DNA of 64,000 bases from Spironucleus salmonicida (Eukaryota): contig NC_090597.1 in the NCBI RefSeq assembly GCF_000497125.1, positions 1,003,797-1,067,796 of the forward strand. The letters are read 5' to 3'. A program made the translations under genes and the position numbers. The notes under the pieces were generated by a model. That model made no database searches. It was not told where the DNA came from and worked only from the letters and a program-made list of their open reading frames with translations. Shown here one piece after another: positions 3,452-31,951 of the stretch (position 1 is its first letter; every line of letters starts with the position of its first letter).

Positions 3452-5048
3452 GAATTTACATTGAATTGGAGTATATGGATGGCAAGGTGGACTGCGAGTG
3501 GGAACTATTTCAGATAGACAAATTACAAATTAGTACTATATTTCTGAACCGAGTTAGATTTTGTTTAAAACGATGGAAAATATGCTTCTATGGGTGATGA
3601 AGCACTATCTGCACCAACCTGATATTGTAAATAGTATAATTTAGTAATAGCCAATATAACTAATTCTGTAAATTCAATAAGGTGTGTGATTTGCACTTAT
3701 ATTTAGCAGCACAAAAATAAAAAGTGAAATTATATTTTTTGCTCAATTAGTAACGCTAGGTCTGGTTTTGAAAAACTTGGAAGCAGTTTCGATAGCTCCT
3801 ATATGAAATAGAGCTCTAGATATATTATTAGCAGAAATCAGTCAGCAGCAAGTCACCATTCAGCCCAACCAAATTTGCGTGAGTATTTTAAAAGATCAAC
3901 CCTTTATACTTCGCGTTGCGAAATATAAAATAACTAATATTTTTAAAACCATTAAATTAACTTTACACAGGTCTGAATGGTGCTTGCTAGTATAAAATAT
4001 TACAGAATTATAATTTTGAGAAAGCGTTTGTTTCTCCTTACCGTAAACATATATTTGATTTACATTTCATTCTGCATTTTTTAGAGATTAAAAAATACCT
4101 TGTCAAGGCGCGTCGCGGTAGCATTCAAATTCGAATATTGTGTATTTCGAGAGTATAGTTTAATTTGGCGCCATAATCAAATCAGGCATCTCTTAGAAAT
4201 ACAAAAAGGTAATTATTTCAAAATAAGTTAAATTCAGTCTTAAGTCGTTATGCTTGCTTTTAGGCGTCACATTTTCCGATGGAAAATCATCTTAAAAATA
4301 TTTATAGCAAATATAAGAACCGCCGAATATCTGGCCGTGCAAAAAGGTGATAGTAAAAATGTAAAACAGCAACTAAATGGCATCTCCATATTTCACGCAC
4401 ATACTTTTTAATCTTTTTAAGTAACTATTTTGAGCTTCTTCATTCTAGCACGCTTTCTAACCCTCATTTAAGAAACGTTAACTACTGTAATAGTAGAAAG
4501 TAATACGTACTAAAAGCAAATTTCCGTTGGCTTTAGTTTCAGTACCGCCAATCCATTTTTAAGATAGCGATGCAATCATAACTTGTCTCATTGATTTTTA
4601 AACTAGAGCCAAGAAAAAGTTGTCTTTAGTCTTGGTTACTTACTACTAGAGTTTATTATAAATACTGATTTTCCTGAGAAATTAACATGTAGTAATGAAT
4701 ATAATATCAATTACTTATTTATTTCAATATTTGGAAATATGTGAACAAACATATTGAATATGAATAGAAACTCAAGTAATGTATTAAGCTTTTATAATTT
4801 TAGCATACTACCTATGATACTGTATAATATTCCGAGTTTACAATTTAATTAATATTTAAACGCATTCAATAATTTTTTGAAATATATGTTAGATCTACAT
4901 ATAAATTGATAAAAGAATAAATGATCGCAGTTTTTTTTAAATACAATAATATGGATTTGTTTATAATTAAATCATTATTTTTTAAATCAATAATATAAAA
5001 CTCAATATATATAATATTATACATATGTAAAAATATCTCAAACATAAA

Positions 5049-5924
5049 ATGACAGAAAGTGGTAAGTGTAAAGATGGCGATAATAAGTGCAAAATAGATA
5101 CGTATTGCCCTACTAGCGAGGATAATATCGTTGATTGTAAGTCTTGTGCTGATAATTTAATTAATTTTAGGTATGGTTGTAATTGTATAGATAATGTATC
5201 GACTTAACGTTGTTAATTGTGTAAAGATGGAACATGTTCTGTTTGCATAGCTAACTATTTCTTAACCAGTACAAAAACATGCGAGATATGCGACAGCAAC
5301 TGTAAATCTTGTGAAGGAAAGGAAACCGAATGCACTGAGTGCAAACCTGGATTTATTTTAGAGACAACATCTAAAACATGTGTAAAATCGTGTTCTAATC
5401 ATAAAGACTGTAATGCTTAGCATCTTGGATATTGTGATTTCTCTGTTAAACATTGCAAGCCTTGCTAAGAAGACTGTAGCTTCTGCACATCTGCTATCTT
5501 TTGCTTAGAATGCGAAGGACACAAAGCAAAACCTGTTACCACTATCGATGGAAAATGTATTGCAGAGTGTGCTGGTATTGCTGATGGGCAATTCTGCTAG
5601 GATGGCACTTCAACTTCTTGCAGTGCTTCATCTACTTCTTAGTGCAAATGTGCAAATATGTTTAGATGCGCTACATGTAATGATAATAAAACCTAATGTG
5701 CAACATGTTTAGCAGGATATGCTATTAATACTGAGGGTAATTGTACTGACTGTGCATATGGCTATGAACCAGTTGCAGCAATCTGTTTACCATTATCATC
5801 CTCTGGTGAAGGTTCTAATTTTTCAGGAGGGGCTGTAGCTGGAATTGTAGTAGCAGTATTGATTGTGGTGGGAGCAGTTGGTGGTGGTTTAGCTTATTAT
5901 TTTGTCAAGAAGGCCAAGAAGTGA
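5049..5924 (+). CDS. CRMP1: Cysteine-rich membrane protein with KKAKK tail, 291 aa
   Basis: MTESGKCKDGDNKC...; CxxC repeats; [29 protein letters not shown] then KKAKK*, matching the [KR][KR]x[KR][KR] tail of Spironucleus CRMP1; stop AAGTGA. Confidence 0.92.
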
Positions 5925-8158: not shown

Positions 8159-9898
8159 ATGACAGAAACAGGGAATTGCTCAAATAAAGTCTTCACCTGC
8201 AAGGCTGGAAATTTCTGCCCTGCAAATAGCTCAACGATCGTAAAATGTCAGCCATGCTCGGAAACTATGGTATATGGATAAAGTTGTTACTGCTAAGACA
8301 GCAAACCCATAGACAACTGCCAAGAATGTGCGGGCAATCGCTGCTCTAAATGCCTGTCTTAGACATTTTTATAAAATGGTAAATGCCTAGACTGTCCTCC
8401 TTACTGCGATACCTGTGCAGACACAAATTCTTGCATTACGTGCACCGAAGGTTACGAAAAGAATCCATATACCGGTATTTGTGAATTATTCTGTAAAAGT
8501 GAAGATGAGTGTCTGCGCATCGGAGAAGAGTTTGGGGAACCTGCTACATCAATGGCTTAAACTTGCATTCCGAATTGCTTAGTATGCTTTACAACCACAA
8601 CTTGCGAGTTCTGCAATCCTAGTGGGTTTATCAGTACACTATCAGGGCAATGCACTAGCAAATGCGTAAATATTTAAAACGGAAATTACTGTGACAACGG
8701 TACTGCAAAGCCTTGCGATGAAAATCTGACGTCAGAATGCAAATGTGGCCGTGCGGACTTTTGTGCTTCTTGTAATCAAGCTGGTACCTAGTGTAAAAAG
8801 TGTTTGCCGCATATGAAATTTAACAAAACTGGCGAATGTGACGGTTGTGAGGACGGATTTGCTCTCGAAAGCAGCTAGTGCATACCCTGCACAGACGAAA
8901 ATTGCAAGACTTGTCCAGCTAAAAAAAATATCTGTACGGGGTGCAAAAATAACTTTATGGTGTAAAACGGAAAATGTGAAAAGCAATGCACCACCATTGC
9001 CAACTGCACGGCCAGCCAAATTTGTGACAAAATCTGCAAAACCTGCACAGGCAACTGTGCCACGTGCAAGGACGCCGTCGACACCTGTATGACCTGCAAA
9101 TCTGGATTTATCTTGGAAAACTAAAAATGTGCAGCCTGTCCCAGCGACTGCGCGAACTGCGACGGCGATAAAAATGATTGTAAAATTTGTAAAGAAGGCT
9201 TTTTCGCCAAAGATAAAATCTGCAATACTTGTGATGGAAACACGACCGAAAAGTGCAAGTGCAGGAATGCAGTAAATTGTGCTACCTGCGATTCTTCTGA
9301 TATAGGAAAGTGCGGAAACTGCATCACCAGCTACAAAAAGGCATCCGATGAAACGTGCTCCACCTGCGTTGATGGCTATTTGATGGTCGGAATGGTCTGC
9401 AAGAAATGTGAGTAAACGTGCGCCACATGCTCATAAAGCATCTAAAAATGCACCAGCTGCATCGATTCGCACACCATGAGCATCAATTAAACGTGCGAGA
9501 AGGATTGCATGGATGCACTAACAGATGGGAATACGTGCACTGACGAGAAGACTGTGGATTGTGGTGGAAATGATCAGATAACTGCGTGCAAATGTAAAGA
9601 TGCTGCAAACTGCCTCAAATGTGATAGTTCGGATAATAAAAAATGTGAATCCTGTATGACAGGCTACAAATTTGTGAATTAACAGTGCGACAGCTGCATA
9701 GACGGGTACACTGCTGTTGGAAAGTTGTGCTTCCCATAGGACGATACGCTCAGTACCAACCTTTCTGGCGGAGCTGTTGCAGGCATTGTTATCGCAGTTC
9801 TGATCGTGGTTGGAGGAGTTGCTGGTGGCGCTTTCTGGTACATGAAGAAGTCCAAAGTTAATTAGGAAATAGAGAAGTAGAATTTTAGCAGGTAGTGA
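8159..9898 (+). CDS. Cysteine-rich membrane protein (CRMP2-type, mosaic), 579 aa
   Basis: MTETGNCSNKVFTC...; continuous CxxC frame under table 6; [29 protein letters not shown]; tail MKKSKVNQEIEKQNFSRQ; stop TAGTGA. Confidence 0.92.
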
Positions 9899-12512: not shown

Positions 12513-14090
12513 ATGTCTGGAACATGTACTGATAGCGTAAACAGTTGTGCGGAAGGAAATTATTGCCCAACAGGAACCGGCACCACTGATGCAGCCTGCA
12601 TTAAGTGCACTGTCGGTTGCCTTACTTGCTCAGGTACCACCTTAGAAGATACAATGTGCGCCACTTGCGCAGACGGCTAATTTCTTGATGGAAAAAAATG
12701 TTCACCCTGCGACTCCAAATGTAAAACCTGTACCACTACTGCAACCACTTGTTCTTCCTGCCAAAACGATAACTTTTTAGAGAATAATACATGCAAAACA
12801 TGTACTGCCAATCAGTTGAAGCCCTGCATGTGCACAGCCGCCCTTAATTGCGCCACCTGCGCAACCGACAAGACGAAGTGCGACACTTGTAACGGAAACT
12901 ACAACCCATATATTGGCAATCCTTGCTTGACCTGCAAACCAACATTTTTCGAGGACACGACGACAAATCCGAAAACCTGCAAAGCCTGCTCAGCTAACTG
13001 CATCACCTGCTCTTCTGCGACCAAGTGTACACTTTGTTATGGTGGCTTCGCTGTTGAGAATAACAAGTGCGAAAAGTGCACAGTCTTAAACTGCACGAAC
13101 TGCGTAGGTGATAAGGACACCTGCATCGCCTGTGCTTATGGATTTGACCTTACAGACAGCAATTGCGTCAAAAACTGCTCGAAAGATTTCGATTGCAGCT
13201 CTACTGAAATTTGTCAAACGACCTGCAAAACCTGCACTAACAACTGCGCTTCCTGCAAGAATACGCTTAGCGAGTGCAAAAGCTGCCTTTCAGGCTACAT
13301 TTTGGAAGGCACCTCCTGTGCTAAATGCGGAGATAACTGCGCCAATTGCGACGGGAATAAAGCAGTCTGCCGGCTGTGCAAGCCCAACTTTTTCCTGAAG
13401 AATGGTACTTGTACAACCTGCACCGGCAACACCGTTGAGCAATGTGAGTGCAATGAAGCTATAAACTGCGCAGACTGCTAGGTTGCGGACACGAGAATAT
13501 GCGATAAATGCCTCACTGGGTTCAAGAAGTCGAATGAAGGCTCTTGTGACAAGTGCTCGGATGGGTTTTTCATGAGCTAAAAGTTGTGCTTAAAATGCGG
13601 CAACGTATGCAAGAGCTGCTCAGAGGACAGTGAAAGGTGCGATACTTGTATTACTGGGTATACGATGAGCATAAACCAAATATGCGAAAAAGACTGTACG
13701 GATGCTGTTACTGATGGCAACGTTTGCGTTAGGGAGTAAGTAGTGGCGTGTGGGAGTGATAGTTAGACAGTTGCATGCAAATGCGACACTGCGGTAAACT
13801 GCTTCAAATGCAGCGGGACTGATAGTAAAAAATGTGAGTCTTGCATGCCAGGATACAAGCTTGAGGGAGATATATGCACTGGATGCGCTGATGGAGCTTA
13901 AGGTGTTGGTGCGTTCTGCTTTATTTCTGGAAATAGGTCTAAAAATAACCTTTCTGGCGGAGCTATTGCCGGCATTGTAATTGCAGTTTTGATTGTTGCT
14001 GGTGCGATAGGTGGCGGGGTATTCTGGTTTATGAGGGAGAAAAAGAAGACATCGGTGTGTGTTGAAGGTTCTGCTGGAATACAGGAATGA
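12513..14090 (+). CDS. Cysteine-rich membrane protein (CRMP2-type), 525 aa
   Basis: [25 protein letters not shown]...; same frame as track ORF 12816; [29 protein letters not shown]; tail [19 protein letters not shown]. Confidence 0.92.
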
Positions 14091-15163
14091 AATATTTTAT
14101 TGGTAGCATTTATAGATGTGTAAGAAGTTAGATCCTACCGGTACTAAAATTAATTAGATTATAATTGTTTACCTGTGACCATGCAATTTGTGAATGGTCC
14201 CGCTGCAGATGGGAGACTTCCCCTCAAAAGGCACAATAAATTGATTCACACCAGAGGATGTTAAGTAGAAAATTGTTTACTATATTGTGAACATTATCAG
14301 CTTAGGCGTGTTAATAAAACTGGTTTTAAAGTTAAAACATTGTTGTACATTTTTCTCAAATAGATTTTAAATTTTTATGTTACCTTTAAATAAACCTAGC
14401 ATCGCTGTAATCACACTTACTCTACCATAAATTTAATAATATTTCTTAATTACATAATTAAATAAATATCATCCTTAACTGGATATAGATTTACATAACT
14501 AAAATTTCTTTAATAAATTTAGAAGATTCTTTATATTATATCTTGTTAAATACAATGAACAAGTTATTCCAAAATAACATTATATTGTATCTAAACAACA
14601 GTAAATATATACTCTCAATCGAAGATCTATACAAACTTTATTTCATCTTAAAGTTTAGTCGGTGCAACTAGAAATACTGATAATGCAGCATTCAGCAAGT
14701 ACTAATGAAGATAGGCTCTTATTTTTGCAAGCAACAGAGTCGTCTGACTAACCCGCTTTATTCGTAGCTTGTTTCGCCATTTATTTTAAAACTATATATT
14801 GGATACTATATGTAAAATAATAGCATTTTTAGAATAGAAGTGTTTTCTAAAATTCTTAATACTAGGATATTCTCCATATCTACTAGACACTAGTATGACA
14901 TAGTAGAGTGCTGTATACAGGGAGGTAAAATATAATAGTAAAAAATTTATACAGCTGGTGCGTACTTAGTATAGCAGTTAAGCTTTATCGTCTTGGAATA
15001 ATGCGTTGAGTGTGTTAATTACGTGTCACAGGCTCTTTATGAAATTAGTTATAAGGTAAATTAGTTTATAGGCACTAGTAGGATAAATACATTACTTTTA
15101 GTGTAGTTATATAATATTATATTAATAACTATAGTTTTTAATCTAATTAATATTACTCCTTAA

Positions 15164-18100
15164 ATGACCAATCAGGGCTCGAATACCAAGACAGAAGCTA
15201 AGCCTACCTAGCTCACTTTTTCCTCTTTAGACAACGATATTATGGAGCTTCAATAGGATGTGGTGTTTTCATTTATCGGAACTGAATTTTATATAAGCAA
15301 AGTTGACGATGCCGTATGTTACCTAAGAGTAACCATTGATACTGTTGAAACCCTCAGCCTCCTGCACCTCTTCATGTGGCAGCATAGGCAAGGTCTGCTA
15401 CTCAGAAGCGACATCCAACTGATCATGATACAAGATGAACTGAAGGATCCTAGTATATCAGTATCTGAATACTGGCGTAACTTGGCTTCGTTGTCCCTTC
15501 AAATGGGGTTTTCCACCATGTTATTTAATAAATATATTGATATTTTGTTATAGAAGCCAACCCATTAAATGATTATAGTATCAGACGTCCCCAGAATCGA
15601 CTCTCAGTGGCTAGACACCATGGAGGGATTGAGCCACTTCCAGTTTGATGATAAAATGTCCAATTCCATGAAATTGGTTATTTTGGAACGAATTGGCTTA
15701 ACTACCCATAAATAAAAGCAATATGCTCATCTACTGCCAATGATACTGGGGTATAGCGCCTACATTATTTAGAATTAAATTATTTAATATTAAAAATATG
15801 ATATGGAAAGTATTGTTAAAGATACTGTTTATATTAAAAATAAGGGTATTGATAAAGAAATTCTTGATCCAAATTTCCCTCAGGTTTATATTCATCATGC
15901 ATAAGAAGTGTATACTACTGCAACCGTTCCATCTGAGATTTAATATAACGCTACTATTTTAGACAATAATGGAAATAAGAAGATCAAGAATTTTACATTC
16001 GATAATATCACTTAAGTCTTCAAGAATATCTTTGAACTCCCAATACATTTAATAGATTTATTTAAATTTGATGGTACCAACAAGTTCATCTTCCAGCAAA
16101 TGTGCGATGTGTCCTACCTGTTCAAGGCGTAGTACTTTGCGGTGTTCTCAGCCTTCTTCCCCCTCGAAAATGCGATTATGAGCCAGAGCTCGAGGAGCGG
16201 TAAAACTGTCACCCTGCACACTATATTCTACTTCAACCTGTTCTCGGGGCTGAAAATTCCCATATTGATTAACATTGGATATACAAAAAATTTACATGTA
16301 CTGGAAACGCAGCCGTTATACGATAGAAGTTCTATCGAGATTGGTTAACGCCTAAAAGCTTTATTTTGCGGCTATCAAAGTAAACCTGTCCTTGGAGACG
16401 TTATTAGTAGTAATTTGAAAGATGGAGTTGAATATTCTAAAACGATGGCTTATGTTAAAATAGAGTGTTTCAACTTAATCAAAGACTATGATATACTGGC
16501 ATTATAAATATTACTTAAAAGTATATTTGTTTCATATTTCACGGGATATTCTTATTTTGAATAATTTTCGTTAAGTTGTGGGTTTAATTTTTTTAATTAT
16601 TAGCAAGCAGATCAATTGAAATAAATCTAAGTCACTTTAGAAGAAGAGCTAAAATAATTGTAGAAAGAAACTGGAAGTAATTAAAAAAATGAGGAGGTAT
16701 AGTTATAAATAGATCATGTATCCAGGAGAATTAAGTCTTACTAAAATGGATTTATTAAACCAGATAACACGGTAAACTAAATTCAGGAATTTAGCAAAAA
16801 CAAGTAAATTATTCTATTAGTCGATGAGTGTCTAGCTTACCAGAAAGCCAACTACTAATCGTGCACCAGTGCGCTAGTTAGAATAGCAGATTAATTTGTT
16901 GCCAAATTTACGGAAAATGCAAAATCGAGCATCGATGAAGTACTTTAGAATATCAAGTAGATAGCAGCTAGTCAGTTAATATAATTATTAGACTGGCTAG
17001 AAATTCGTAAAAATGGTTTGAAAGTATGTAAAATTGATGATAATAACAAGCTTTTACTCTTGGATGAGGCAAAACAAAAAGTAGAATACATCCTTGGTGA
17101 CCCTATAGAGATTGACCGATATTTCCTTAGGTTAATACCGTCTGAAGTATTTAAAAATTGTAAAGCTTATAAACTTATTGATCTAATGGGTATTTCGTCT
17201 CCAAATTTTATCAACCTTAGAGAACCATTAATAATAAGGGACGCATTCTAGGAAATGATGTCAGATGTTAGAAAATAAACTACAATTGCCGTATTTAGGG
17301 CAAAAGTCTACTAGTTTCTCCTAATGTTATACAACCCGCGTGGTATCGAGACAATATTCTGGAGAAACGTTTCTTTTTCTATGAATTAAGTAGCAGATTC
17401 CATTAATATAACTAATACACCAAGCAGCTAAATTAAAGATGAATTAAACAAATATTTAAGCGAATAGTTTAGTACAGAAACCATGTACATTGATTTCTTC
17501 ACAAGTACATACAATGTTACTATAAAATTCCCTATAGAAAATATTTATGCATAAATTCCCTTTATCTCAGCAAAATCTGCTCACCTACTGGCTGCAGGAA
17601 CTGATCTAGCCCTTATAAACTTCATCAGATAGAATTAGTTTCTTTATACTTCCGAAAATAGTAGAGGTTAAACTCCATATACACAATCGAATATCCTTGG
17701 CACCTCCTAGATGCACCCTTCTTGTCTGACCTAAAGCTACTACAAAGATATGCGAATTACAACCTAGACTGACGATTCTATGAGACAATAAGTAAACGAT
17801 AAGGTAAAAAATATGAACATCAAGGACTTCTACCTCACGATGGTACCGGAACTAGCTGCAGAGCTTTAATTCTTATGTCCACTGATTTGCCCTTAAATAA
17901 TAATTAAAAATTCAACATCTAAATATTTATTTAACTCTACACGATAGTATTAGTATAACATTGGTGAAAAAATTATTGACCTAAATATTTTATCATCTCA
18001 TAGATAGATTTTAAATTCATTATTTATAGAAAGAGAAGATAAGTAAGTTGGTGCAACCTCGTTAGGTAGTAACAGATTGGCACTGAATAAAATTTTAAAA

Positions 18101-20136
18101 TCATAATCCATTTAAGATTTTAATAATAACTTGCGTCTGACTTCATCGTCCTCCCTAAATAGAGAAGTAGTGTTTATTCTTAGTTTTACCATGAGTTAAA
18201 AATTTGTGTAAAATTTAATTATACTAACAACATTAACAGAAGAAGATCTTGTATAACAGTCGTGTGGCGCCCAACAGATATTATGCTAACTTAACTAACA
18301 ACAAGTATCTGAAATATCAGCGGCGCTACTTCTTATTGTTTCATTATGCTAAAATTCTTATCATGAGACAGGTATGAAGCTGCTGATGAATTAAATCAGT
18401 AAAGATTCTTAATTTTTGGAGATATACGAAAATCCATATTACAAATATACTGCAGTTACAGAAATCAAGTTAGACACATTATATAAATAGCTTAAATCTC
18501 TATTCAAAGAAGCATGTTTCATGTTCCTGCAACAGTCATTTGATAAATTTTTCAATGCAAAATCTCCCACTCTGTAGGAATTCTTTTAACATGCTATTGA
18601 TAATGCGGGAATATGTTATGCAAAATTGCTATCAATAGGCTAGATTAAAGCAGGTTAAAAGCTCGCTATTGTAACAATTGTTGATAAGAATCACATATCA
18701 AATGTATTTTTTAAGCCACTGCCTCCAATGCCAGACTATTTGATTTCACTTTTTGGGGTCAGTGACTAATAAGTCATAGACTTCAGTGATTAAAGACTTC
18801 TGTCCATTAACGCTCACCGTAACAACGGTCATAAATTTTCTAGCCTCAACTTCTTGATTGAATCTGGAAATCACATCCCTGAAGAAGTTTCTACCAAATA
18901 AAATGATATAGAAGTTGCTTTGTGCTTCTAAATTTCTAGCAAATAAAAAACTACGGTTACATAAATAGTTCTATTCCATAAAAATGGGCATGCACGGCAC
19001 AATGATGAATAAGATATCGAATAAGACTAAGAAAGGTTAAGTGGAGTCTAACAATGTGCACATCTATCATTCACACAATTTAGCAATTAAGATTACTCCA
19101 TAGGTAGCTATTTGCAGTAGATAAACGTATTTGACGAATTTTAAAAAGTATGGTATTATAAATGTTATTTCTAGTATGGTATCTAATCTTTAATATAGTA
19201 GTAGAGCTTTTCCCCTGAATATGAAATTCATGTGGACTGCTTTTGGGGCTAGAACTTCTTCCTAATTCCAAGATAGTAAAATATACGAAGTGTGCTGAGG
19301 ACTGCAAATCCAAAGCTATTTCTCTTCGAAGCTGTCAAAATTAACAAAAGTGATGCAAATAATAAGGAGTCTTCGGTGTCTATGCACATCATCGTAAACT
19401 AACATTAGCACCTTTTCTAGAAGCTAGGAAACTTATACGAAACTTTAGAATTCGTATCGCCAGCAATCAGAGTGTAAACCAATGTTGCCTGGATCCCGAA
19501 CAAATTTAATACGTGCACTGAAAACCCCATACAAATTACCATTGAACAAATTAACTCTTTAATATTAACGGTAGAAAGTTGCCGTATTGAAAATAGTATT
19601 TAGTATAGATTTTTAAGCAATCTCCTATGTTAGCAAAATTTGACCTTGGTACAAGCACTGTAATGTCGTACTTGCTTAATATAACACTTTTCCCTATCGC
19701 AGTCGAAGGCCAAATTCTAGTGGTAAATTAGCTTGCACCTGACCACTCGGAGTTCGTTGTTCCAGGGCCATCCAAGTCTGAAGAGTAGACTGTTGAGGAT
19801 GCCTCCATATCTCAATACCATACGTTATGCCAAGCTACAAAGGACAAGTATAGAAACGAGCTCTCTGATGACTAAGTGCAGTTCATGCAAAAGAACGTAA
19901 ATGGGGTTTTTGATGCAGCATGCGCGTTACTATAATTTGATGATGGAGTTTTTACATTTAAAGTAAAATATTTATACTAAATGCCTATTACGAGAAGGTA
20001 GAGAACATCTTTTAAGGAGGATTGTTTCGAAACTATTTAAGAATCCAAAGAGTACTTACTGGAAACGTTCATACGACTCAAAGCTGTTATACTGGCCATC
20101 GAGGAAGGCGTCGTCCACGTGATAATTCTTGAGTGA
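15164..20136 (+). CDS. Large (~1650 aa) putative P-loop NTPase, Crinkler/RHS/STAND-like, with probable frameshift near 19590
   Basis: One frame open 15164-20122 (1652 aa) under table 6. Walker A-like AIMSQSSRSGKT (16172-16207), Walker B IILLVDE (16808-16828), sensor-1-like LLAAGT (~17585-17602), ENSRG (~17654-17668). From 19591 a second frame is also open to a GAGTGA stop at 20136. Confidence 0.8.
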
Positions 20137-21869
20137 AAGTGAGGGTTTATTTGTTCTACTGCCTGATGTCACTGGATGGGAAACTGGTGGGCTAAATAAC
20201 TGCTTATTTATATTAACAGTTTCATATATATCATATTCTAGAATTTTGAACGGTTTCCTTAAGCTTGAAATTAGCTATTCCAAATGAGTAAGGTTTTAAG
20301 AATAGGTCGAACCTCTGTAAGGCATCTCAGTGTTCAGATAATTTTTAAATATTCTGGCTACATGATATTTTACAGGAATTACTTTGCTTCAGCGCTTCAA
20401 TTGCTAAATATTGGATGCAGTATTTGAGGTCAATTGTGATCGTTGTTTATAATTATGAATGTCCTGGATCGAGTGTGCTAAACATTCTTCTGCACTGGCC
20501 TTTTTGCGGCCTAAGATGGCGCATATTTCCATTATAGACGTCGCGAAAGTTTGTTCGTTTCCGTTTCAAGCTCATTTACAATTTTAACTCAAATTGCAGA
20601 TCAAGTGATAAAAGACATTCTGGTCCGGCAAACCAGTAGGAATTACAATATAGATACCCAAAATAGGTTAACGTACGGTTTATGTTGTTTTGAAAGATGG
20701 AATTACTGTGCTGAAATTCTAGCTTCATGTATTACTCTATGAGTAATAACAGAGCGGTATGGCACTTTTATGCTGGACCAGTAGCGCATATGCAAATTTA
20801 AAAAATTGAGGATAGGGTTACTGAATGTGAAGCTTACTATATATTGGTGCCTACAATTTCCATTAAAAGCAGTAGTGACTTAACACAATAGTTTATTTGG
20901 TTCATTAAAATGGTAGTAAATGCACCAGACTAGCATATGGCGGGATTTATGGTACATTAATAATGAAACAAAATAGCTGCAGTTTTCGCTATTACTCGTG
21001 ATCTTCGTACCTAACAATATCAAGTTATCGATCTTCTTTATATTTATTGGTTGAGGATGGTCATCACTTCTAGGTTAAATTTAATAATCAATGTTATGAT
21101 TAGGTAATATTACTTTGGCCGATAAATATAGCTGGATATGCATCGTAATCCTTATATTATTATCATACGAACTATTTACCAACAGGTAGTTGCTTGCTAA
21201 TAGAACAGAAAAATTATTTCTAGTGTCAGTAACTTGTTTTCGTATGCTAGTGTTGTGATAGTGTATGGAGTTAAGATAATGACTAAACACGGTACTTATT
21301 ATTATAAGATTACAATTCCTAGCATTTTTACTTTCTAGAGTCTCTCTACACTCTGGAGGTAAAACCGATATACAAGACGTACAATCTGAATTCCCTAACT
21401 ATATCTGATACTTAGTGCAACTGAAAAGATCATTTTGCGATCGTTAACTACTCATGGTATAACTAAAGTAAACACGGAGTTTCACAGCGGTCTGATTGCT
21501 GTTAGGGTACTTATAACTGCAGTAGTAAATAATAATACAAGTCTCAGATGATTATATTCATTTAACTAAATTCCCATAATATGGGAAGAAGAATGGAGTT
21601 GGAAAACCTCGTAAAGTAACAGGATATTGCAGCAATAATCTGCAAAGTGCGAAACCCATCATTATTACTAAATCAAATAGCCGCATACTGCGTGCAGAAA
21701 ATAGTACAATATACAGCATCAAGCTTGGGCAGCTGGTAGCTCATGAGACTTGTAATATGGCCCATGTGCAACCAAAGATATACTTGATGGTTCTTAATAA
21801 AATTATAGATAACACTCATTTGAAATGCTGAATGCAAACACATTAAATGCCGTAATAATTTATATCAAG

Positions 21870-22749
21870 ATATCCAGTGATATTTTACTTATTTATAGTA
21901 TAGTGCATCAACTTCGAATAATAAGATATTCTCATGCTGCAAAAATAGTTCTGAAGGGTCCTTAGGGTCTCTAGGGTATTCCACAACTTTCTTGGTTCCC
22001 ACAATAACCATCATTCCCACAAGATGGTTGAATGCGAATATTTCTATCAAAAGTTATCACCTTGTGGGCGCATCTAGCTCACAAAAAATCACTACCAACC
22101 CGGCCAAGCCTAAAACGCTGGAAAACATTCCAAGAAAAACTTCCCAGTTCACCGTATGCCCACAAAAATACTCCATACAAAACCCCACTCCAACACTGAT
22201 AACAAAAAACACAACTGCTCAACTCCCGGTTCCCATTTTCACGTAACGCCCTTCACCGCGACTTTACCTGCCCTTGAAGATACTTAACCCATGTACACCT
22301 AAAAGCACATCCAGCGATGCCTTATCGATGCCATTGCCACCTGAAGCATATCCCATTAACTACATTTGCAGAGTCATGCGCAATTTCTTACCGCGTTCCG
22401 AGGTCTGGTCGCACTGACTGAAGCAAAGCTGATAACCAGGAAAATTATCAAAACCCCCAATCAGTATCATATACATAACACCTGCAAAACCTCCACCCTG
22501 CGGTATCATGTCAAAAACCTGAAGTGAAATCATTGAAACGTACGCAGACGAAATACCAGCGGCCAAATGCTGTCCACGTCGCATTTGAAGCTGCCGGAAC
22601 CGACGGCAACCAAAATGACACCAATGGAACCAAATTTTAATCTGCAAAAACACAAATTCTGATAATTCTGCAACTATCGCTTCTTCGAGATAATCTTGCA
22701 TATACTGCGGTACAGTCAGTATTGTATCACTTTTCAGCGAATTGCACAT
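21870..22749 (-). pseudogene. Decayed multi-pass membrane transporter, ZIP (ZupT/GufA)-like
   Basis: LAAGISSAYVSMISLQVFDMIP, LLGVHGLSI, LGLAGLVVIFCEL and LVGMMVIV resemble ZIP helices in the expected order; in-frame TGA at 22219-22221 and 22057-22059. Confidence 0.45.
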
Positions 22750-23421
22750 CTATTCATTTATTTTGTCGGTATAGCTATATTTGTATCTGTTCCGGTAGGC
22801 CATGTAGCTGGTGTTACAAATATAGGATAGTTATGGAACTTTGTTGATATGTGACCTCATTGAAATAGAATATTTTTGGATGGGTGTGGTGGGATTCTTG
22901 TGTGGAAGAAGCACGTCCAGGAAAAATGTTATTATAATGATGTAAATAATTGCAGCAGAAGGTCCATAAGTTTGCTACCTTTTTTCAATTGATGAAATAA
23001 TGCAAATATTAGAGATGATGGTAGACTCGTAATTAATGAGCGGCAACGATAGGCTAACTTTATATCCCTATTGATTCATATTATTTTAATACCACCGAAT
23101 GAATCAAGTTGGTCATAAACTATCATGTGTAGTGCGTAATTGGTATTAGAATATCTGCAATTATTCTGCTTTGAGTTAGACATAGACTGAAAACGTATTA
23201 GCAAGATGGAGGATTATCCCAAGCGGTTACATGCGCATCCCATAGACTAATATTGCTTGAAGATACAGTAAATATTATCATCACTTGATGGTGGTATATG
23301 GCTCCTACTAATTTTCAGCAAAATTTAATATTAATTTCGTCATACAACATATTGGTATATAGTATACCAGGTATCAAAGAAAAATATTTTAAAATATTTT
23401 AGTGCTAATATACAGTCTAAA

Positions 23422-23799
23422 ATGGGATTACAGTATCATCCAGTCACACAAAGGGTTCCACAGAAGAATAAATTGTAACTCCTTCGGGTGGAGCTATTAA
23501 AGAGTGGATAATAAATGCAATTAACTGATAAGATATAGCCTATTTTGGAACGGATAGTTTAAAAATTAATGGTAAATATCAAGTATTTTACCAAAATTAT
23601 GACTCTTGGCACACATCTTAATAGTTAATCGTAAGGAATGAAGATCCAACGAAAGTACTATGTATCCACCAACCGAAGCATTTAACATAACTAACATTAC
23701 AAAAACTTGTCGTTTACCATTAAAGAGTAGATAAATTATATACGAAATATGTTGCGTGATGAGAATAAAATAAAAATAAAATTATATAAATCTACATGA
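23422..23799 (+). other. 125-codon open frame, possibly a relic of a non-LTR reverse transcriptase
   Basis: MGLQYHP...IMTLGTHLNS...KIKLYKST*; weak resemblance to RT regions 6, 7 and thumb; no catalytic xxDD motif seen. Confidence 0.2.
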
Positions 23800-25500
23800 A
23801 TACAAATTAATAATTAGAATATCTGTATAATGTTGTTACAAAGTGCTTAGTTTTCGCTACGGTATGGATTTTATAAAAGTAAAATATTTAGAGGCAAATG
23901 GCCATACTGCAGTAAAAACTTACTGGTTTAAAGCCCTGGAAATACTCTAAAACTAAAATCATATGAATAAGTTGGCTAGAACCATTCTAACCACTATGGA
24001 ATGGTAAAACTGAATATAAGGATATCTTATTCCCTTTTACACCTAATAATCGCATCTACTACTATTTTATCATAATTTTACCACTCAGCCCCAAGTAATA
24101 TTTTTACTACAAGACCATTTAACATTTAACGACTCATGAACCCTTTTAGGGCTGTTACAACAATTTTTCAAATCAAACCCTGCAAAATACCATTTTCAGC
24201 CTCCATACTAACTCTCAAGCTACAAAATTGAAGCCACATTCTCACCGATTCCTCAAGATTTCTACCCTACCCTAAACTAAATTTTGCATGACAATATCAT
24301 GTGAATACTGCAATCGTGCGTTCCACATTAGCAGTTCTGCGCATTTGCTGTCAACCAGCGCTCAAACGGTCAAAGAATCTTGCAGGCGCTGAAACAGCGC
24401 AGTTAAGTGATTTTTAATGGCGCAAAACCGCGTTTGAGGCTTTCGTGCAGCAGTTAGCAACGCATTTTGCTATTTGCTTTTCGCGGGAGGTTGCAAATTT
24501 GGGATGCTGTGAAAGAATACCAGAATTAGTGGGGTAGGAAATATGCATGTTAGCAAAATTTTGTTTATCAAATTTGAGGTGGAAATGAGCATTTTTGGCG
24601 ATAATTCATTGAGTCAGTAAATAGAGTGAAAGATACATTGAGTTGATTCATTAATGGAATAGTTTGGTTGCGGCAGTGAGGGCATTGCAGTTCGACTGAT
24701 TATTAGTGCTGGATTTGCGCAGTCTTACTAGGTAAGGGAGTGGGACAGATTTGGAGCGAATATGGTCGTGGTGATTTATGGCGCTGTTGCAACAAACTGG
24801 TATTTGCCAGGTAATAAGTTTTATAATGATTTGGTTTCGATTTAATTTAAAGATTTAGAGATAATTTGATGATATAATATTAAGCAGTATATCTAATTTG
24901 GATGAATCTGAAATATCAGGATCCTATTATCCAACAAATAATAAAATTACATTTGTAAGTTAATGTGAAAATTATGATAAAATAACATGTAATGCTGTTA
25001 AATCTGTATCATATATAGTACAATTATTAAAATAACTAATATATGCAAAGCTGAAACTGTAATTTATAATAGAAAATATATGCCACGGAATCACTCTAAA
25101 GATAGTAAATTAAATATAGGAAATATACATGACACCAAATTTATGACTTAAAGCATGAGTATCATTGATATTACATAAACAAATTGAAATCATAGTTTCA
25201 ATTATTATATACAGAACTACTAATATTCTTGAGCTAAAATATAATAGTAATTGCTTATATGCTGCTATTTTTATTAAATATATCTAAATTAATCTATCTC
25301 TGCCTTGGTTTGACCTCATTATAATTTTATTTCACGTTATCAATTAATGCATTAAATGGTTAAATAAATTGAAAAATATTGCAGTCGACTCAAGTATTCA
25401 CTAACTAACTGTTATAGGTGAATTATCTGGAAGAGTCACACATTAGTCAATAATATTTAGATTCATAAAAAAAACGTATATCACTTTATAATTATTACTA

Positions 25501-26471
25501 TCACTTCTTTCCTTTCTTGATGAAGTAAAAAGCAAGTCCACCACCAACAGCACCAACTACTACTAAAACAGCTACCAAGATACCCGCAACTGCACCTCTG
25601 GACAAATTACGACTAGGAATTATAGCTAAAAAGCAGAAATCTCCAATTTTCTCAGCACCTTCGACGCACTCTTAGCATTTTTCGTCTTTAAGCACATACC
25701 CTGGAAGGCACGACCCACATTTAACCTAAGGTGTTAACATACACTTACCTTCAAATAACCGATAATTCTTAGAATCTATGCAACCAGTGCATGTTGTCTT
25801 GTCGGTATCAGAACATGTACATAATGGATCAGTGCAAACCCCAGCTGATATTTTCGGAAGGTCTGGACAAGTTAAGCAATTCTCTCCTCCTGGTCCACAC
25901 CTGCATTATGTTTTCTGGTCAGCAGAGCCACAGTCAACTTGAATATTATTAACACATGCCTTATGTTCACTAATTGGTCTACATGGAACTATACACATTT
26001 ATTCTATGCTCATCTCATGGTTAGCTTTACATTTTGTGCATTTCGTCTAGCTTCTGCATTTCTCGCAGGTGTCGGGGCAGACGCTACAGACATTACCAGT
26101 AGGTTTTAATTAGCAAAACTATGATTTTTTACAAGATTTCTCGGAATCACATTCATTTATAATAGCTTGAGATTTTTTACATATATCGCCTACAACTTCA
26201 AATCCGACCGCACATGCTGTGCATTTTGCTGCGTTATCACATGTTATGCAGTTATCAGAGCATGCTTTGCATTCGGTCGAATCTTCATCTAAGTAATAAT
26301 TTGGTTAGCATCCACTGCATACGTCTTCACTACCTTCTGTACAGGCATTGCAACCAGGATTAGCTGCAATATTACATTTAATACATTCTTTTCGCTTGTT
26401 TCAGTTGCATCACTTGGACATACTTGTAGTTCTTGGCATTTCTTTCCGCTGTTGTCACATTAAGATGTCAT
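25501..26471 (-). pseudogene. CRMP1: CRMP1-type gene with one frameshift (pseudogene or indel error); ~323 aa if corrected
   Basis: MTSQCDNSGKKCQELQVCPS in one frame; KECIKC...[31 protein letters not shown] in another; one extra A in the run at 26389-26392 joins them; stop AAGTGA. Confidence 0.85.
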
Positions 26472-27149
26472 TTTTAGAGTTTAATTTTATTATTATTATA
26501 TTTATGCTAAATACTTACCAGTTTAATACAATATTTATTAATATAATTAGATATAGATAAAATGTTTGTTATCAGTTTTCAAGTATATATTGATTAGCAC
26601 AATATATGCAAGAGTTATAAAACTAAAAATCAATAACTGAAGCTTTATGTGTAATCTATATATAAATATAAAATTATATTATTTATAAATTAACTAATTT
26701 ATCGAGTTACTGTATAATAGGTTAATAAATAAGCTTATAGAAAAGCTATAAAATGAGAAATGAAAATCATAATTATAATGTAAACCTATTATTTTAATTC
26801 TAAAAGTTGTTATAATAAAATATATATGAACTTCATAAATCTTATTTTCATTTAGTAAAATTATATACATTGTCAGTTAATGCTACGATAAAATAAAATT
26901 TATTTATCTAAAATTTAACAGATTGATCTGACGAGGGTTTAGAGTAATAAATTGATCTTGTATAGTTAGCATATGTAAAGTCTGATGCTAAAAATGCAAC
27001 CAATGAATAAAATATGTCTACCATTATAAATGAAATAGAAATAATCAAATTTATATTTTATGCTGTCTGTACCGCACTACTAAGCACATAGTAAATTATA
27101 TAATAACAATTCTAGTTTTAACAATATTCTTGTATACTTTGGGAAAAGC

Positions 27150-27439
27150 TATAGTTAATATATAAGTCTACAGATGCTGATTCATGAGGAACATATGCTT
27201 TAATAGAACTGAGTATGAAATCTCTTGCCGTATTATAAGTGCACAATAGATTAAAATTTGCATACAATCAACCGAACTAGAATATTGCTGCTGGTTTGAG
27301 CACTATATATAATCAGAGTAAGAAGGTATCAAAAAGTAATAGCATGACTGATCGCATAGGATGAGTGGTTCTGGTGATAATCGGAGCAACTGTTGCGGCT
27401 CTAACGTATTTACTTATCAGGATAGCTGAGATGGAATGA
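27150..27439 (+). pseudogene. Heavily decayed CRMP C-terminal relic
   Basis: Residual TM-like segment RIG*VVLVIIGATVAALTYLLIR and a LPYYKC fragment; limits approximate. Confidence 0.35.
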
Positions 27440-28105
27440 GTGAAATCTTATTCATTATTTGCATAAGTTGTAAACCCTATCATATTATACCTACATAAAT
27501 TTATTTTGAGTTTGTACAATTATAGGAGTTATAATTTTATCTCAATAAATCAATTAAGCAAGCTTGGAATTATAAACCAATTCTCTATGTATTTGAATAG
27601 TATTGTTGTATAATTACAACCATCTAGCTGGAATGAGTAATACTTATTTTTAAAATAGATATAATTACAGTTATTTATAATAATATCACATTTAATATAC
27701 TGTTTTATGACTATCCAAATATATAATATATATAGGTATTATTTTGGTTTTTAATTTTTACTAATACTAAGGTATATAATATAAAACTAGTATTTTTTAA
27801 TTTAATTTAAAGATTGTAAGTTATTACTCATTTTACATAAATAATTATACCTACTATTCTTGCATATATTAAAACGCATTATCACGTTTGTTCAGTTTAC
27901 TGCTATTAATTTATATCTAATGTATGTAAAATTTAATTTAATAAGATACATTATATAATATCAATTCCCATACCTATCGTAAACTTTTCATACAATCTAT
28001 CGTTACTTAATTATTGCACTTCTATTTCAATAAGCAAAAACACAATACCACCAATTCTCATTATTATTCAAACTTATAACATATTCATATTTTCACGTCC
28101 ATAAA

Positions 28106-30235
28106 ATGTCAAAGATGTGTAATTCTTCAAATACAACTTCCTGCAGTGAAGGTTTCTTCTGTCCATCCAACGTAGGATCTGATGATACACCTTGTATCAA
28201 ATGCAAATAAGAATGTGCAACTTGCACAGGAGAATCCGCCGAAGCTGCCACGTGTTTAACCTGCGCGGACGGATAATATCTAAGCAGCGGAACCTGCGCA
28301 AACTGCGATTCGAAATGCGCAACATGCACAGGAAGTGAAGCTAGCACCTGCCAAAGCTGTGCAAATGGGAACTTTCTAAGCGGAACCACCTGCTCTGCAT
28401 GCGTTTCCGGAAACTCCATGAAATGCACCTGTGGAACCTCTGAGAATTGCGAAACTTGCGCTACAGATAAGACAAAATGTGATACCTGCATCGGTGAATA
28501 TGATATATCTGCGACTATTCCTTGCTCAGCATGCAAGGCAGGTTACTTTGAGAGTTCTGATATCCCAAAAACCTGCTCAAAATGTCCAGAAAACTGCGCA
28601 ACTTGCACCGCAGAAACCACCTGCAAAACCTGCAAAGATGGGAACATTTTAACTGCAAATTTGTGCGTTCCATGCACAAAAAATTAAATGACTGCCTGCA
28701 CGTGCAAATCTACTAAAAACTGCTAAACTTGCGAAGCTTCTGATAAGTCAAAATGCGCAACCTGTATCAATAACTTTGACCCATCTGAATCCACCCCTTG
28801 CTAAAACTGCTTACCAGGATTTGTCAAGGAGGTCATTTCTGGAAGCGATACTTGTACGGCCTGCTCTGCGAACTGCGCAACCTGTACCTCCGGCTCCGTT
28901 TGCACCCTCTGTAAGAATGGGTTTTTGCTAAAAGGAAATGAGTGTACTGCCTGCTCTACAATATAAACTACTGCCTGCACCTGCTAGGCTGCAAAAAATT
29001 GCTCAATATGCGATATTTCTATGATTAAATGCGCAGCCTGCATCAACAACTACGAACTAACAGGAACCACCCCTTGCGAGAAATGCAGGCCGAGATTTTT
29101 CGAGGACATTACTGCAATTCCCAATAAATGCACGGCCTGCTCTAATAACTGCACAACGTGTACATCTGCCTCCGTTTGTACAGCTTGCGAGGAGGGGTTT
29201 TTGATTGAAAACAATACGTGCGTAGCCTGCACAGACGAAAACTGCAAAACCTGTCAAGCTAGCAAAGACACCTGCACGGCGTGCAAAAATGACTTTACGG
29301 TGTAAAACGGCAAATGTGAAAAGTAATGCGCCACCGCTGCATAATGTAGGTCCAACTAAATTTGCGACAGTATCTGCAAAACCTGCACTGGTAACTGCGC
29401 GGTGTGCAAGGACGACATCGCCAACTGCAGGGTCTGCTAACCGGGGTTCCTGCTAACCGGCAACACTTGCCGCTAGTGTCCGACGGGTTGCGCGAACTGC
29501 GCTGGCGACACTTCCGTTTGCCAGATTTGCCTGAACAATTTTTACTTCAAAAAAGATAAATGCTTCATCTGCACCGGGAACCTGAAGGAGCCGTGTCAGT
29601 GCCACCGGGCAATTAACTGCGGCAGTTGCGACCTCGAAAACCTATCAAGGTGCGCTACCTGCATTTCTGGGTACGCGATCGACAAGAATGGGGAGTGTAG
29701 TATCTGCGCGTAGGGCTTTTTGATGTTGGGAGGCGTCTGTGCGAAGTGTGATTCCAGATGCGGTACGTGCTCGCAAAACGCGAAAACGTGTGATAGCTGC
29801 GCCAAAGGCTACACGATGAACGTGCATCAGACGTGTGAAGAAGTGTGTGCGGATATGTTAACAGACGGGCACGCTTGCATTGGCGGTAAAGCTGTGTAGT
29901 GCGGGAGCCGCGGGCAGGTCACTGAATGCAAATGCGGGGATAGCATAAACTGCAGAATTTGCTCAGCTGATGGTAGCAACAAGTGCGGGGGTTGCTTATA
30001 CGGCTACAAAATTGAAGATGGTGCGTGCGCTAATTGCGTTGACGGGGCTGTTGCAGTAGGAGCTTTTTGCTTTGCAAGTGCAGAAGAAAGTAATCGTCTG
30101 TCTTCTGGGGCGGTAGCAGGAATTTCGCTGGCAGTTATCGCGGTGGTGTTGGGTGCTTCTGGTGGAGTTTTCTGGTATCTTAGGAGGGCGAAAATCGCAA
30201 AGCGGAAAACAGTAATGAAGTGGAGGTAGTAATGA
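28106..30235 (+). CDS. Cysteine-rich membrane protein (CRMP2-type), 709 aa
   Basis: MSKMCNSSNTTSCSEGFFCPS...; paralogous to 1184-3451 including upstream flank; TM LSSGAVAGISLAVIAVVLGASGGVFWYL; tail RRAKIAKRKTVMKWRQQ*. Confidence 0.92.
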
Positions 30236-30409: not shown

Positions 30410-31951
30410 TCATTGAGCCTTGCCTAGTATTGTAGCCGATTCATCAATTCGCTAATATACGTTTTACTTATTAGGTTTTACATTATTATTCTTTTAAACC
30501 AAATTAGATTTTTTCTTCATTAAAACAGCATAGACTACTCCACCTATAACAATGCCAACTACAGCTATTATGCCAACAACGATTCCGATTATAGAGCCGC
30601 TGCTCATCTTATTTATTTATGGTAAACACGACCCGTCTACAGGACGATCATGATTTTTGCATTAGGTGCACACAGATTCACTATCACATGTGAAACACTT
30701 AGCAGGACACTACTCCCAACTATTACCATTATCGTATACCTTGCAGTAAAATCCAGTTAGGGAGTCATTTTCTTATTCGCATTAATCTTCGACACACTTT
30801 TTATCAGACGAAAAGCGTGCATAATGTAAACATTCTGTGCAAGTATCCTTGTCAGAGCAAACCTTGCATAGCTCTGGACACTAAATGCATATATTACCAG
30901 AATCAAGTTATTCACAGTGTTAACTGTCAGAACAACCAATTATATTATCACATTAATCCTCTACACACTGTTCATTGGTGTTGAATCTATATCCTTTCAA
31001 ACACAAATCACATGTATCAGCTGCCTAGCATTGCTAGCAATTTTGAGAACATTTCAAACAGCGGTCATCCTTTTTCAAGTAGCCAGTTGAGCATCTACTG
31101 CAAACCTCTGCAATATTACAAGTAGCACACCCATCAATGCAGTGAACGCAAGTCGATCCAGTGATCTTAGCATCACAGAACTAGTTAGGTCTGCACGGGT
31201 TTTTAGCATTGCATTCGTTCGGAACGCACTCCCCGTCAACCAGATCGTGGTGGTCTTTGCAGAGCCCGCATACATCCTTCGACGAACATGCGCGGCAGTT
31301 GTCTTTGCAGAGCGTGCATGTATTATCCGTCGTATCAAGCAAATAACCATCTTGACAAATTTAGCATTCTAAGTGACTGGAGCATTTTTTGCAGTTTTCT
31401 GGGCAGGGAAGGCACACACCATCTATTGCTCTGTATCCCTCTATACATTCATAACATACGTTATGTTCACAGTTTATACAATTTTCTGGGCATTTCTGGC
31501 ACACTTTATTTATAAAATTATAGTCAGGTAAACATAGGCTACATTACGATTTACTATTGCATTGACCACAACCTGGGGTACACGGCTAGCAATTATTGGT
31601 TCTATCCCTAAAAAATCCCTGGTTACAATCTCTGCACATCCATTATCCACTGCAGATATTGCAGTCCTCCACGCATTTAACACACTAACCGTCTTTAACT
31701 ATGTATCCATGAATGCAGCTGAAGCATCTATGGCCGTTGCAGATAACGCAGTTTTCCTTACATGCCTTGCAGGTATTACTCTCTAAGTAGTATCCATATC
31801 GGCATTCTTCACAATTGCCTCGTGAATATGACTGACACTTCCTACAGTTGAATATTTCGCATGTTTGACATATTTGTGGCTTTGTTTTGTCATCGGTTGG
31901 GCAAACAGTGCCATCTGGACAGCGTTTTGTAGGACAGATGTAGGGATTCAT
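30410..31951 (-). CDS. Cysteine-rich membrane protein (CRMP2/HCMP-like), 513 aa
   Basis: MNPYICPTKRCPDG...; frame read through without TGA; furin-like CxxC repeats; TM GSIIGIVVGIIAVVGIVIGGVVYAVL; longer tail containing YQRI (YxxPhi-like). Confidence 0.9.

Follow-up and report, generated by a model that had tools for sequence, protein, structure and literature searches.

The window considered here is a stretch of 64,000 nucleotides of the Spironucleus salmonicida genome (assembly GCF_000497125.1, contig NC_090597.1, positions 1,003,797 to 1,067,796 of the forward strand). At positions 15164 to 20136 it contains a large gene, which is real and is a member, probably transcribed, of an S. salmonicida multigene family. 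Among the sequences searched, this family is known only from S. salmonicida. The protein carries a GK[TS] loop and a DE strand. We tentatively read these, with a confidence that falls a little short of even, as the Walker motifs of a very diverged P-loop NTPase of the additional strand, catalytic glutamate (ASCE) type, nearest to the first RecA-like lobe of superfamily 2 (SF2) and linked to both a conserved core and an alpha/beta domain without a structural match. This NTPase reading is based on the conservation of the motifs within the family and on one lead from a protein language model.

Under table 11, the region 14000-21500 does not hold a single open reading frame (ORF) of 100 or more amino acids. 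Translation with the ciliate-type code (table 6), as had been proposed in an earlier reading of the letters (the sequence-only reading), recovers a single frame at 14705..20122 on the plus strand, with 1805 codons and 112 TAA and TAG triplets read as glutamine. Since TGA occurs in the window at a frequency of 0.0164 per position, 1805 codons in a row without TGA would arise by chance with a probability of about 1e-13. Between 15164 and 19621, glutamine is specified by 61 TAA and 33 TAG codons against 21 CAA and 15 CAG, and TGA is absent. The start at 15164 agrees with the N-termini of the paralogues (MT[DN]Q...); this methionine is counted as residue 1. The locus had been described as a 5-kb frame that is invisible in the standard code, which holds as far as the lack of table 11 ORFs is concerned, but the gene runs in two frames, with its C-terminus displaced. 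The reality of the gene is supported by the ORF statistics, by paralogues from 81% down to about 20% identity, and by contig coverage.

Seven family members came out of a word-indexed search of 5.8e9 proteins: the window's own product and six named S. salmonicida proteins, whose identities to the window copy are 81, 63, 58, 49, 46 and 46%. When 1.84e9 representatives were searched exhaustively by phmmer, with residues 61-1260 as the query, 16 proteins were retrieved at E <=1e-3. Eleven of these are the window product or named S. salmonicida proteins, three have UniParc identifiers only (P0018, P0019 and P0022), P0011 and P0017 are without an organism look-up, and none of the 16 is named from another organism. 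A profile of 19 members, run against the 5.8e9, retrieved 13 proteins, 12 of them named as S. salmonicida and the remaining one being the window product, which is listed there with no name. The current assembly contains at least 14 gene models of the family (13 with current accessions, plus the window's own), spread over six or more large contigs and two small contigs of 4.3 and 14 kb and including adjacent split models (P0014 with P0023, and P0015 with P0028). There are at least six deep subfamilies, across which about 35 columns are invariant; the distant ones are 20-26% identical to the window copy. The word orphan therefore applies to the family, for which no outside relative is named, but not to the gene. 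The ciliate-type code and the diplomonad host that had been deduced from the letters are both borne out, all organism-named relatives being from S. salmonicida. Six locus tags of the family are absent from the full texts searched; supplementary tables, which may list them, lay outside this search.

In five paralogues (P0005, P0006, P0007, P0008 and P0009) a long coiled-coil insert separates the conserved core from the C-terminal domain; in P0005 and P0006 the insert contains short tandem peptide repeats. The window copy and P0004 are without such an insert. In a Pfam scan of seven members, only coiled-coil families were matched, on the paralogues with repeat inserts. P0006 (V6LLP0) bears the name "Dynein heavy chain", which was rejected on the finding that none of the seven members scanned has a dynein or AAA profile.

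All eight motif strings that had been picked out in the sequence-only reading are present, in the order given there. Together with the other features of the gene they are located as follows; model confidence is given as the predicted local distance difference test (pLDDT), and "rows" are the aligned family members that cover a site.

15164..20136, plus strand: whole gene as defined by the paralogues, about 1656 codons with two extra letters set aside
15164..20122, plus strand: deposited product P0003, 1652 amino acids, single frame
15164..15553, plus strand: conserved N-terminal region of about 130 amino acids, family-wide, ending in W.N.....MG; polar, no leader in a crude scan
16172..16207, plus strand: AIMSQSSRSGKT, residues 337-348, the string originally named as Walker A
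16181..16207, plus strand: Walker A-like SQSSRSGKT; first classical position Q, A in P0016
16589..16774, plus strand: helical hairpin inserted between the two Walker-like motifs, residues 196-257 of the model, with pLDDT about 50-76
16808..16834, plus strand: Walker B-like IILLVDECL; D554 and E555 in 14/14 covering rows
16808..16828, plus strand: the string IILLVDE, residues 549-555
17327..17362, plus strand: conserved block L[YF]NPR..E..FW; R726, E729, F732 and W733 in 16/16 rows
17594..17605, plus strand: AGTD block (the LLAAGT string, residues 808-813); G812 and D814 in 16/16 rows, T813 in 15/16
17654..17668, plus strand: ENSRG, residues 831-835; arginine not conserved in 4/16 rows
17693..17896, plus strand: core blocks ILG..Q.HPS (G846 and H851 invariant) and QF.CPLICPQ (Q902); low AlphaFold confidence
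Residues 890-897: YLTMVPEL
18146..19018, plus strand: predicted domain, residues 995-1285, four-helix bundle then alpha/beta; D1127, D1191, G1198, G1235 and Q1256 invariant
Residues 1048-1061: the helix VSEISAALLLIVSL
19229..19339, plus strand: HVDCFW (1356-1361)...LFLFEAVK (1385-1392), in two of seven aligned paralogues
19621..19623, plus strand: frame break, two extra letters with respect to the paralogues, absent from all crossing contigs in 4/4 runs
19627..20136, plus strand: conserved C-terminal domain, 169 amino acids, ending in ...VVHVIILE; 86% identical to the C-terminus of P0004, in a frame that differs from that of the gene body

The conservation of the two Walker-like motifs is one basis of the NTPase reading. 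In most members the loop has the form S-Q-S-S-[RK]-S-G-K-[TS], with SGK[TS] in 13 of the 16 covering rows. In P0016, the most divergent member, it reads A-P-S-K-S-G-K-S and fits the classical A-x4-GKS. The strand hhhhDE, with four hydrophobic residues before D554-E555, is kept in every covering row and has the makeup of a Walker B motif. Persistence of GKT and DE among the paralogues, on which the sequence-only reading had staked its case, is thus what was found. In the 1000-residue alignment (A2), conservation reaches at least 93% in 39 columns, and nine divergent representatives share 32 columns without any variation, so that DE belongs to a set of just 32-39 invariant columns. The conserved columns further include S679-P680, R726, E729, F732-W733, G812, D814, G846, H851, Q902, N924, S995, N999, D1127, D1191, G1198, G1235 and Q1256. 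In SF2 proteins a motif III of the form [ST]-[AG]-T is expected soon after motif II. The A-G-T block, a candidate for it that is present in 15-16 of 16 rows, follows DE after 258 residues in the window copy and after about 115 in P0020.

The language-model lead comes from the ESM Atlas. For residues 295-640 the nearest clusters are DEAD, ResIII and SecA_DEAD, with 168 of 256 shared features and a score of 0.89, a value that by the tool's own figures is reached by about one in ten shuffled proteins; the ten best clusters all belong to one clan. This similarity to SF2 is only a lead and not a proof. A similarity to GBP, suggested by the same tool for a whole paralogue, was discarded, as its best score of 0.75 is at noise level. 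Profile-profile comparison by hhalign with six Escherichia coli ATPases (from NC_000913.3) aligned the family's loop block with the Walker A motifs of SecA, RhlB and Rho, and its DE block with the DEAH motif of RecQ (P 0.039), none of these alignments being significant (probability <=1.3%). The alignments are short and at the level of motifs, and the AGTD block falls on SecA 510-515 rather than on its TGT at 391.

Several observations weigh against the NTPase reading. The ESM Atlas score is within reach of shuffled proteins, as mentioned, and the profile libraries are silent: Pfam gave no P-loop, helicase or enzyme match for the window protein, for seven members, or at E <=10 for nine members and fragments; NCBIfam, PADLOC and PHROGs yielded nothing relevant for five members each; and neither phmmer nor two family profiles found anything relevant among the PDB sequences. 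Compared with the classical Walker A consensus [AG]-x4-G-K-[ST], the loop begins with Q in all members but P0016. The spacings are indeed as unusually long as had been pointed out, with 208 residues from GKT to DE and 258 from DE to AGT. A further objection is provided by the subfamily of P0019, P0020 and P0022, which has no GK[ST] anywhere and yet keeps DE and all downstream invariants. Its N-terminal half consists of tandem helical repeats of about 120 residues that lead directly into LLLLVDEVL. This suggests, on the basis of the alignment, that the DE strand may be part of the core further downstream and not of a P-loop. Moreover, neither a second RecA-like lobe nor a conserved arginine finger was found, residues 840-1000 being of low confidence in the model. 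The R834 of ENSRG, which had been put forward as a possible arginine finger, is missing in P0016, P0019, P0020 and P0022.

Structure prediction adds to these objections on the N-terminal side and provides a better picture further on. AlphaFold2, applied to residues 281-1280 with 19 sequences, gave a mean pLDDT of 51.8. In this model (m18eddbdb8bf8), pLDDT is below 50 over both GKT and DE, and model residues 1-630 are predicted helical, without any strand; a helix directly follows GKT, with low confidence. Because of the pLDDT below 50, the helical prediction carries little weight. The proposal of an NTPase stands in part: its motifs are kept among the paralogues, but no profile is matched, and the low-confidence model does not place GKT and DE in one P-loop fold. 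Searching the PDB with the 1000-residue model, Foldseek found no match at E <=1e-3 (best 0.15), and a wide VIA-align comparison returned only helical-hairpin matches to model residues 196-257 (best Z 7.0).

Only residues 1000-1275 of that model are confident. Folded alone, residues 995-1285 reach a pLDDT of 85.5 and a predicted template-modelling score of 0.87, and are predicted to form a four-helix bundle followed by an eight-strand alpha/beta domain. The string VSEISAALLLIVSL, which had been listed as a helix feature of its own, appears in the model as one helix of this bundle. According to the secondary-structure listing, D1127, D1191, G1198 and G1235 would lie at strand ends. When compared by VIA-align with 48,161 chains, the domain has its best Z, 5.7, with HisZ (class II aminoacyl-tRNA-synthetase-like; root mean square deviation 5.1 A over 130 residues). 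This is the single chain to reach Z 5, and a second comparison had a best Z of 5.2. RecJ/Cdc45 C-terminal domains score about 4-4.6 and restriction endonucleases 3.3-3.9. Unmatched models typically reach Z 7-8 by VIA-align's own statement, so the predicted domain has no convincing known structural neighbour. Foldseek against the PDB gave a best E of 0.013 (template-modelling score about 0.15) for histidine-kinase DHp-CA chains, which occupy much of the list, and nothing at E <=1e-3; in BFVD there was nothing at this threshold either (best 0.086). HisZ-like, histidine-kinase DHp-CA and RecJ/Cdc45 are not taken as fold assignments. A RecA-like match for the domain was sought with both VIA-align and Foldseek and was not found, which is a further point against the NTPase reading.

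The family plan begins with an N-terminal domain of some 130 residues that is conserved, followed by the Walker A-like loop and its helix, a helical hairpin insert, the invariant hhhhDE strand, and a conserved core of about 450 residues. Then come the four-helix bundle and the alpha/beta domain with its invariant acidic residues at predicted strand ends, a variable region that in some paralogues forms a long, repeat-bearing coiled coil, and finally a conserved C-terminal domain of about 170 residues. On the NTPase reading, nucleotide hydrolysis would be coupled to work carried out by the conserved core and the alpha/beta domain, with a nucleic acid or a protein partner as candidate substrate.

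The main rival explanation is a lineage-specific scaffold or structural protein, helical and associated with coiled coils, that has no enzymatic function and in which GKT and DE are vestigial or coincidental. The helical model of residues 1-630, the coiled-coil repeat inserts of several paralogues, which match crescentin and tropomyosin profiles, the GKT-less subfamily that retains the remainder of the protein and the lack of any enzyme profile match are all in line with it. However, about 35 invariant columns at about 20% identity, most of them polar or of a kind common in catalysis (D, E, R, H, N, Q, S or G), would be unusual for a pure scaffold, and the helical prediction is the one made at pLDDT <50. 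We therefore regard a scaffold as rather unlikely, while giving it more weight than any other account of the function besides the NTPase. Membership of a mobile or selfish genetic element or descent from one, such as an unrecognised DNA transposon with a helicase-nuclease, would account for the copies, the fragments and the occurrence on small contigs: the models number at least 14, on at least six large and two small contigs (4.3 and 14 kb), some of them split, and their motifs are SF2-like. Against this, the copies are not near-identical, their protein sequences differing by 19-80%, tblastn with family proteins revealed no second fragment in the window, phage and plasmid collections (searched by tblastn) as well as PHROGs gave no match, and the stem "transpos" is absent from the main text of the 2014 genome paper (PMC3916229). 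Such an origin seems improbable.

The sequence-only reading had itself tentatively opted for a Crinkler/RHS (CR) type effector or a defence nuclease, made up of a header, an NTPase related to signal transduction ATPases with numerous domains (STAND) and a toxin domain with a restriction-endonuclease (REase) fold; a transposase-derived gene was also considered. The proteins do have several domains, with a conserved N-terminal one that precedes the Walker-like motifs; the family has many copies in a parasite, with the window copy in a surface-antigen array; and there are invariant acidic residues in the downstream alpha/beta domain. Nevertheless, HVDCFW...LFLFEAVK, the presumed PD-(D/E)xK site, occurs in two of the seven aligned rows, those of the window copy and P0004, and is therefore not a conserved site of this kind; the other five rows have unrelated residues or coiled-coil inserts at this place. 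REases reach Z values against the confident domain that are under the stated noise level, and no Crinkler, STAND, REase, defence or transposase profile was matched in Pfam, NCBIfam, PADLOC or PHROGs. Pfam also matched nothing at the N-terminus, where a CR effector would have its Ubl or helical header. CR proteins are presumably also shorter than the window protein. Furthermore, the searches turned up no relative under the name of another organism, whereas a wide distribution is described for CR proteins (PMC5289972). The CR-REase assignment is not supported, and we consider it very improbable.

With respect to expression, contigs from four public runs were compared with the locus: X1 and X2 (2019), and X5 and X7 (2014-2015, DNA). 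Labelling X1 and X2 as RNA is a guess, none of the runs listed being on record as such; their empty flanks fit what is expected of RNA. The contigs of these two runs span about 15172 to about 20100, and their depth is zero at 14600-14987 and 20226-20400. Among the DNA runs, X5 has contigs on either flank, X7 on the 5' flank. Two long contigs, 1736 and 1864 nt in length, match the window except at two letters and one letter, respectively, and are thus much nearer to the window locus than to the 81%-identical paralogue. The gene appears to be transcribed. In a crude hydropathy scan, made without a dedicated predictor, the window product has no 19-residue stretch above 1.45 and its N-terminus is polar. 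Since the scan shows no hydrophobic leader or membrane-like segment in the family members, these are probably intracellular. At position 16588, the sole X5 contig present omits one letter that is not omitted in X1, X2 and X7; this could be a contig error, locally uncertain sequence or a paralogue.

The state of the window copy is a question of its own. The interval 15164-20136 measures 4973 nt, which is not divisible by three. Compared with P0004, the closest paralogue, the window contains an extra CT at 19622-19623 (AAT-CT-CCT-ATG). P0004 reads ...RFLSN-P-MLAKFDLG... across this site and runs on to ...VVHVIILE, and the two extra letters therefore put the conserved C-terminus of the window copy in another frame, at 19627-20136. 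The last residues of the deposited product P0003, about 166, align with no paralogue and are probably out of frame, so that the record would have to be corrected. Every contig crossing 19621 lacks the two letters, in all four runs, with the depth of this version equal to the total depth. The contigs are cleaned, with minority variants dropped, and those that cross the site carry a P0004-like letter at 19766, so that they may combine sequence of this locus with that of a close paralogue, as mosaics. An error of assembly may have caused the break; either the window copy is intact, the break having arisen in assembly or polishing, or it is a very recent frameshift allele. Alternatively, the insertion could be real and cut off the conserved C-terminal domain, which would make the window copy a pseudogene. 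This alternative concerns only the window copy and is compatible with any reading of the function. The window sequence itself carries both letters, other family members are split into adjacent models, and the description of the assembly reports PacBio reads, polishing with Quiver and Pilon, and a list of 194 pseudogenes (PMC9509377). On the other side are the absence of the letters from all crossing contigs and the agreement of the probable RNA contigs of two runs with the window at 19455 and 19468, where DNA-run contigs differ; both points are subject to the caution that the cleaned contigs may be mosaics. We hold a pseudogene to be quite possible, though the odds are against it.

The description of the surroundings as a surface-antigen cluster is confirmed by Pfam and tblastn, as the gene sits among genes for VSP-like cysteine-rich membrane proteins (CRMPs). 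VSP is matched in five of the ten neighbouring ORFs scanned, and tblastn with three VSP-matching proteins detects six CRMP-like genes and two degenerate relics in the window. The six genes are:

1178-3451: CRMP-like gene, tblastn
5025-5924: CRMP-like gene, tblastn
8159-9898: CRMP-like gene, tblastn
12513-14090: CRMP-like gene, tblastn
about 28103-30235, plus strand: CRMP-like gene, tblastn
30410-31951, minus strand: CRMP-like gene, tblastn

The CRMP- or VSP-like relics, at about 25597-26355 and about 35895-36551, both on the minus strand, are seen by tblastn only, as short pieces of 27-47% identity. The fifth gene lies in an ORF at 27587-30235 (plus strand) of which the first 170 residues or so are of low complexity; because similarity to other CRMPs begins at about 28103, the true start is probably an internal ATG. 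The stretch of about 7 kb downstream of the NTPase-like gene (about 20200-27500) contains no convincing ORF or Pfam match besides the CRMP relic, and is long by comparison with the mean intergenic distance of 460 bp given for the genome in the assembly paper (PMC9509377).

Further along, the window contains a tandem array at 37359-52127 on the plus strand, with a period of 2199 nt and a 619-codon ORF under table 6. Five copies, starting at 39273, 41472, 43671, 45870 and 48069, are 99.8-100% identical; a sixth at 50268 is 80% identical, and another copy starts at 37359. On inspection by eye, the product shows a hydrophobic leader at its N-terminus and a hydrophobic helix at its C-terminus; it has no Pfam match, and the G+C content is about 25%. 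Tandem Repeats Finder is blind to this array, its maximum period being 500. At the edge of the array, two genes of housekeeping type are found on the minus strand, one at 61352-63793 with a DRC7 C-terminal domain (E 7.5e-27), and one at 59782-61005 for a calcineurin-like phosphoesterase (E 1.3e-18).

It is tempting, though speculative and on balance unlikely to be right in full, to think of the family as a class of nucleotide-driven machines that has so far been seen in S. salmonicida alone. Each would combine a strongly diverged SF2-like P-loop head, a catalytic-looking alpha/beta domain whose fold has no precedent among solved structures, a variable stalk of coiled coil and a conserved tail. 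Encoded by more than a dozen genes, such machines might act on the DNA or chromatin of the fast-changing arrays of cysteine-rich surface-protein genes around the window copy.

Most diplomonad genes are without annotation; in S. salmonicida, 4903 of 8067 genes were counted as hypothetical in the 2014 genome paper (PMC3916229). The family described here is large, deeply diverged, tightly constrained at about 35 positions and apparently transcribed, which argues for a role that the parasite depends on. Should the Walker motifs be functional, the family would represent an ATPase lineage that has diverged beyond recognition by the profile libraries searched and that also carries a confidently predicted, neighbour-less domain, for which reason it is an attractive subject for structure determination. 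Two further points of the record can be put right: the name "dynein heavy chain" of one paralogue is unsupported, and the Crinkler/REase idea can be dropped.

In comparison with known systems, P0006 resembles dynein heavy chain only in its large size and coiled-coil content, the profiles of the AAA+ ring and the motor being unmatched. The predicted domain 995-1285 has a mixed sheet with flanking helices in common with the class II aminoacyl-tRNA-synthetase-like fold (HisZ, the PolG2 accessory subunit, PylRS), but the best Z of 5.7 is below 7-8, identity is 5-10%, Foldseek ranks DHp-CA chains ahead, and no membership is claimed. Like the CR effectors of Zhang et al. (2016), here taken after the review PMC5289972, the family possesses a conserved N-terminal module, Walker-type motifs and additional domains, and is expanded in a parasite; unlike them, it has no demonstrable REase domain, no CR profile match and no relative named elsewhere. 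The DEAD lobe of SF2 proteins and SecA differs from the family in several respects. Significant profile or profile-profile matches are lacking, the Walker A begins with Q, the spacings exceed those of SecA, neither a second RecA-like lobe nor a conserved arginine finger was found, AlphaFold does not give the fold of this lobe, and one subfamily has no motif I. The likeness extends to a motif I-like SGK[TS] loop with its helix, a motif II-like hhhhDE, and a G-T block downstream of a long insert (DE at 554, AGT at 811-813), while the nearest ESM Atlas clusters of residues 295-640 lie in the DEAD/ResIII/SecA_DEAD clan. In E. coli SecA, with GKT at 107, DEVD at 209 and TGT at 391, motifs II and III are about 180 residues apart (182), so an SF2-like motor can accommodate a long insert between them.

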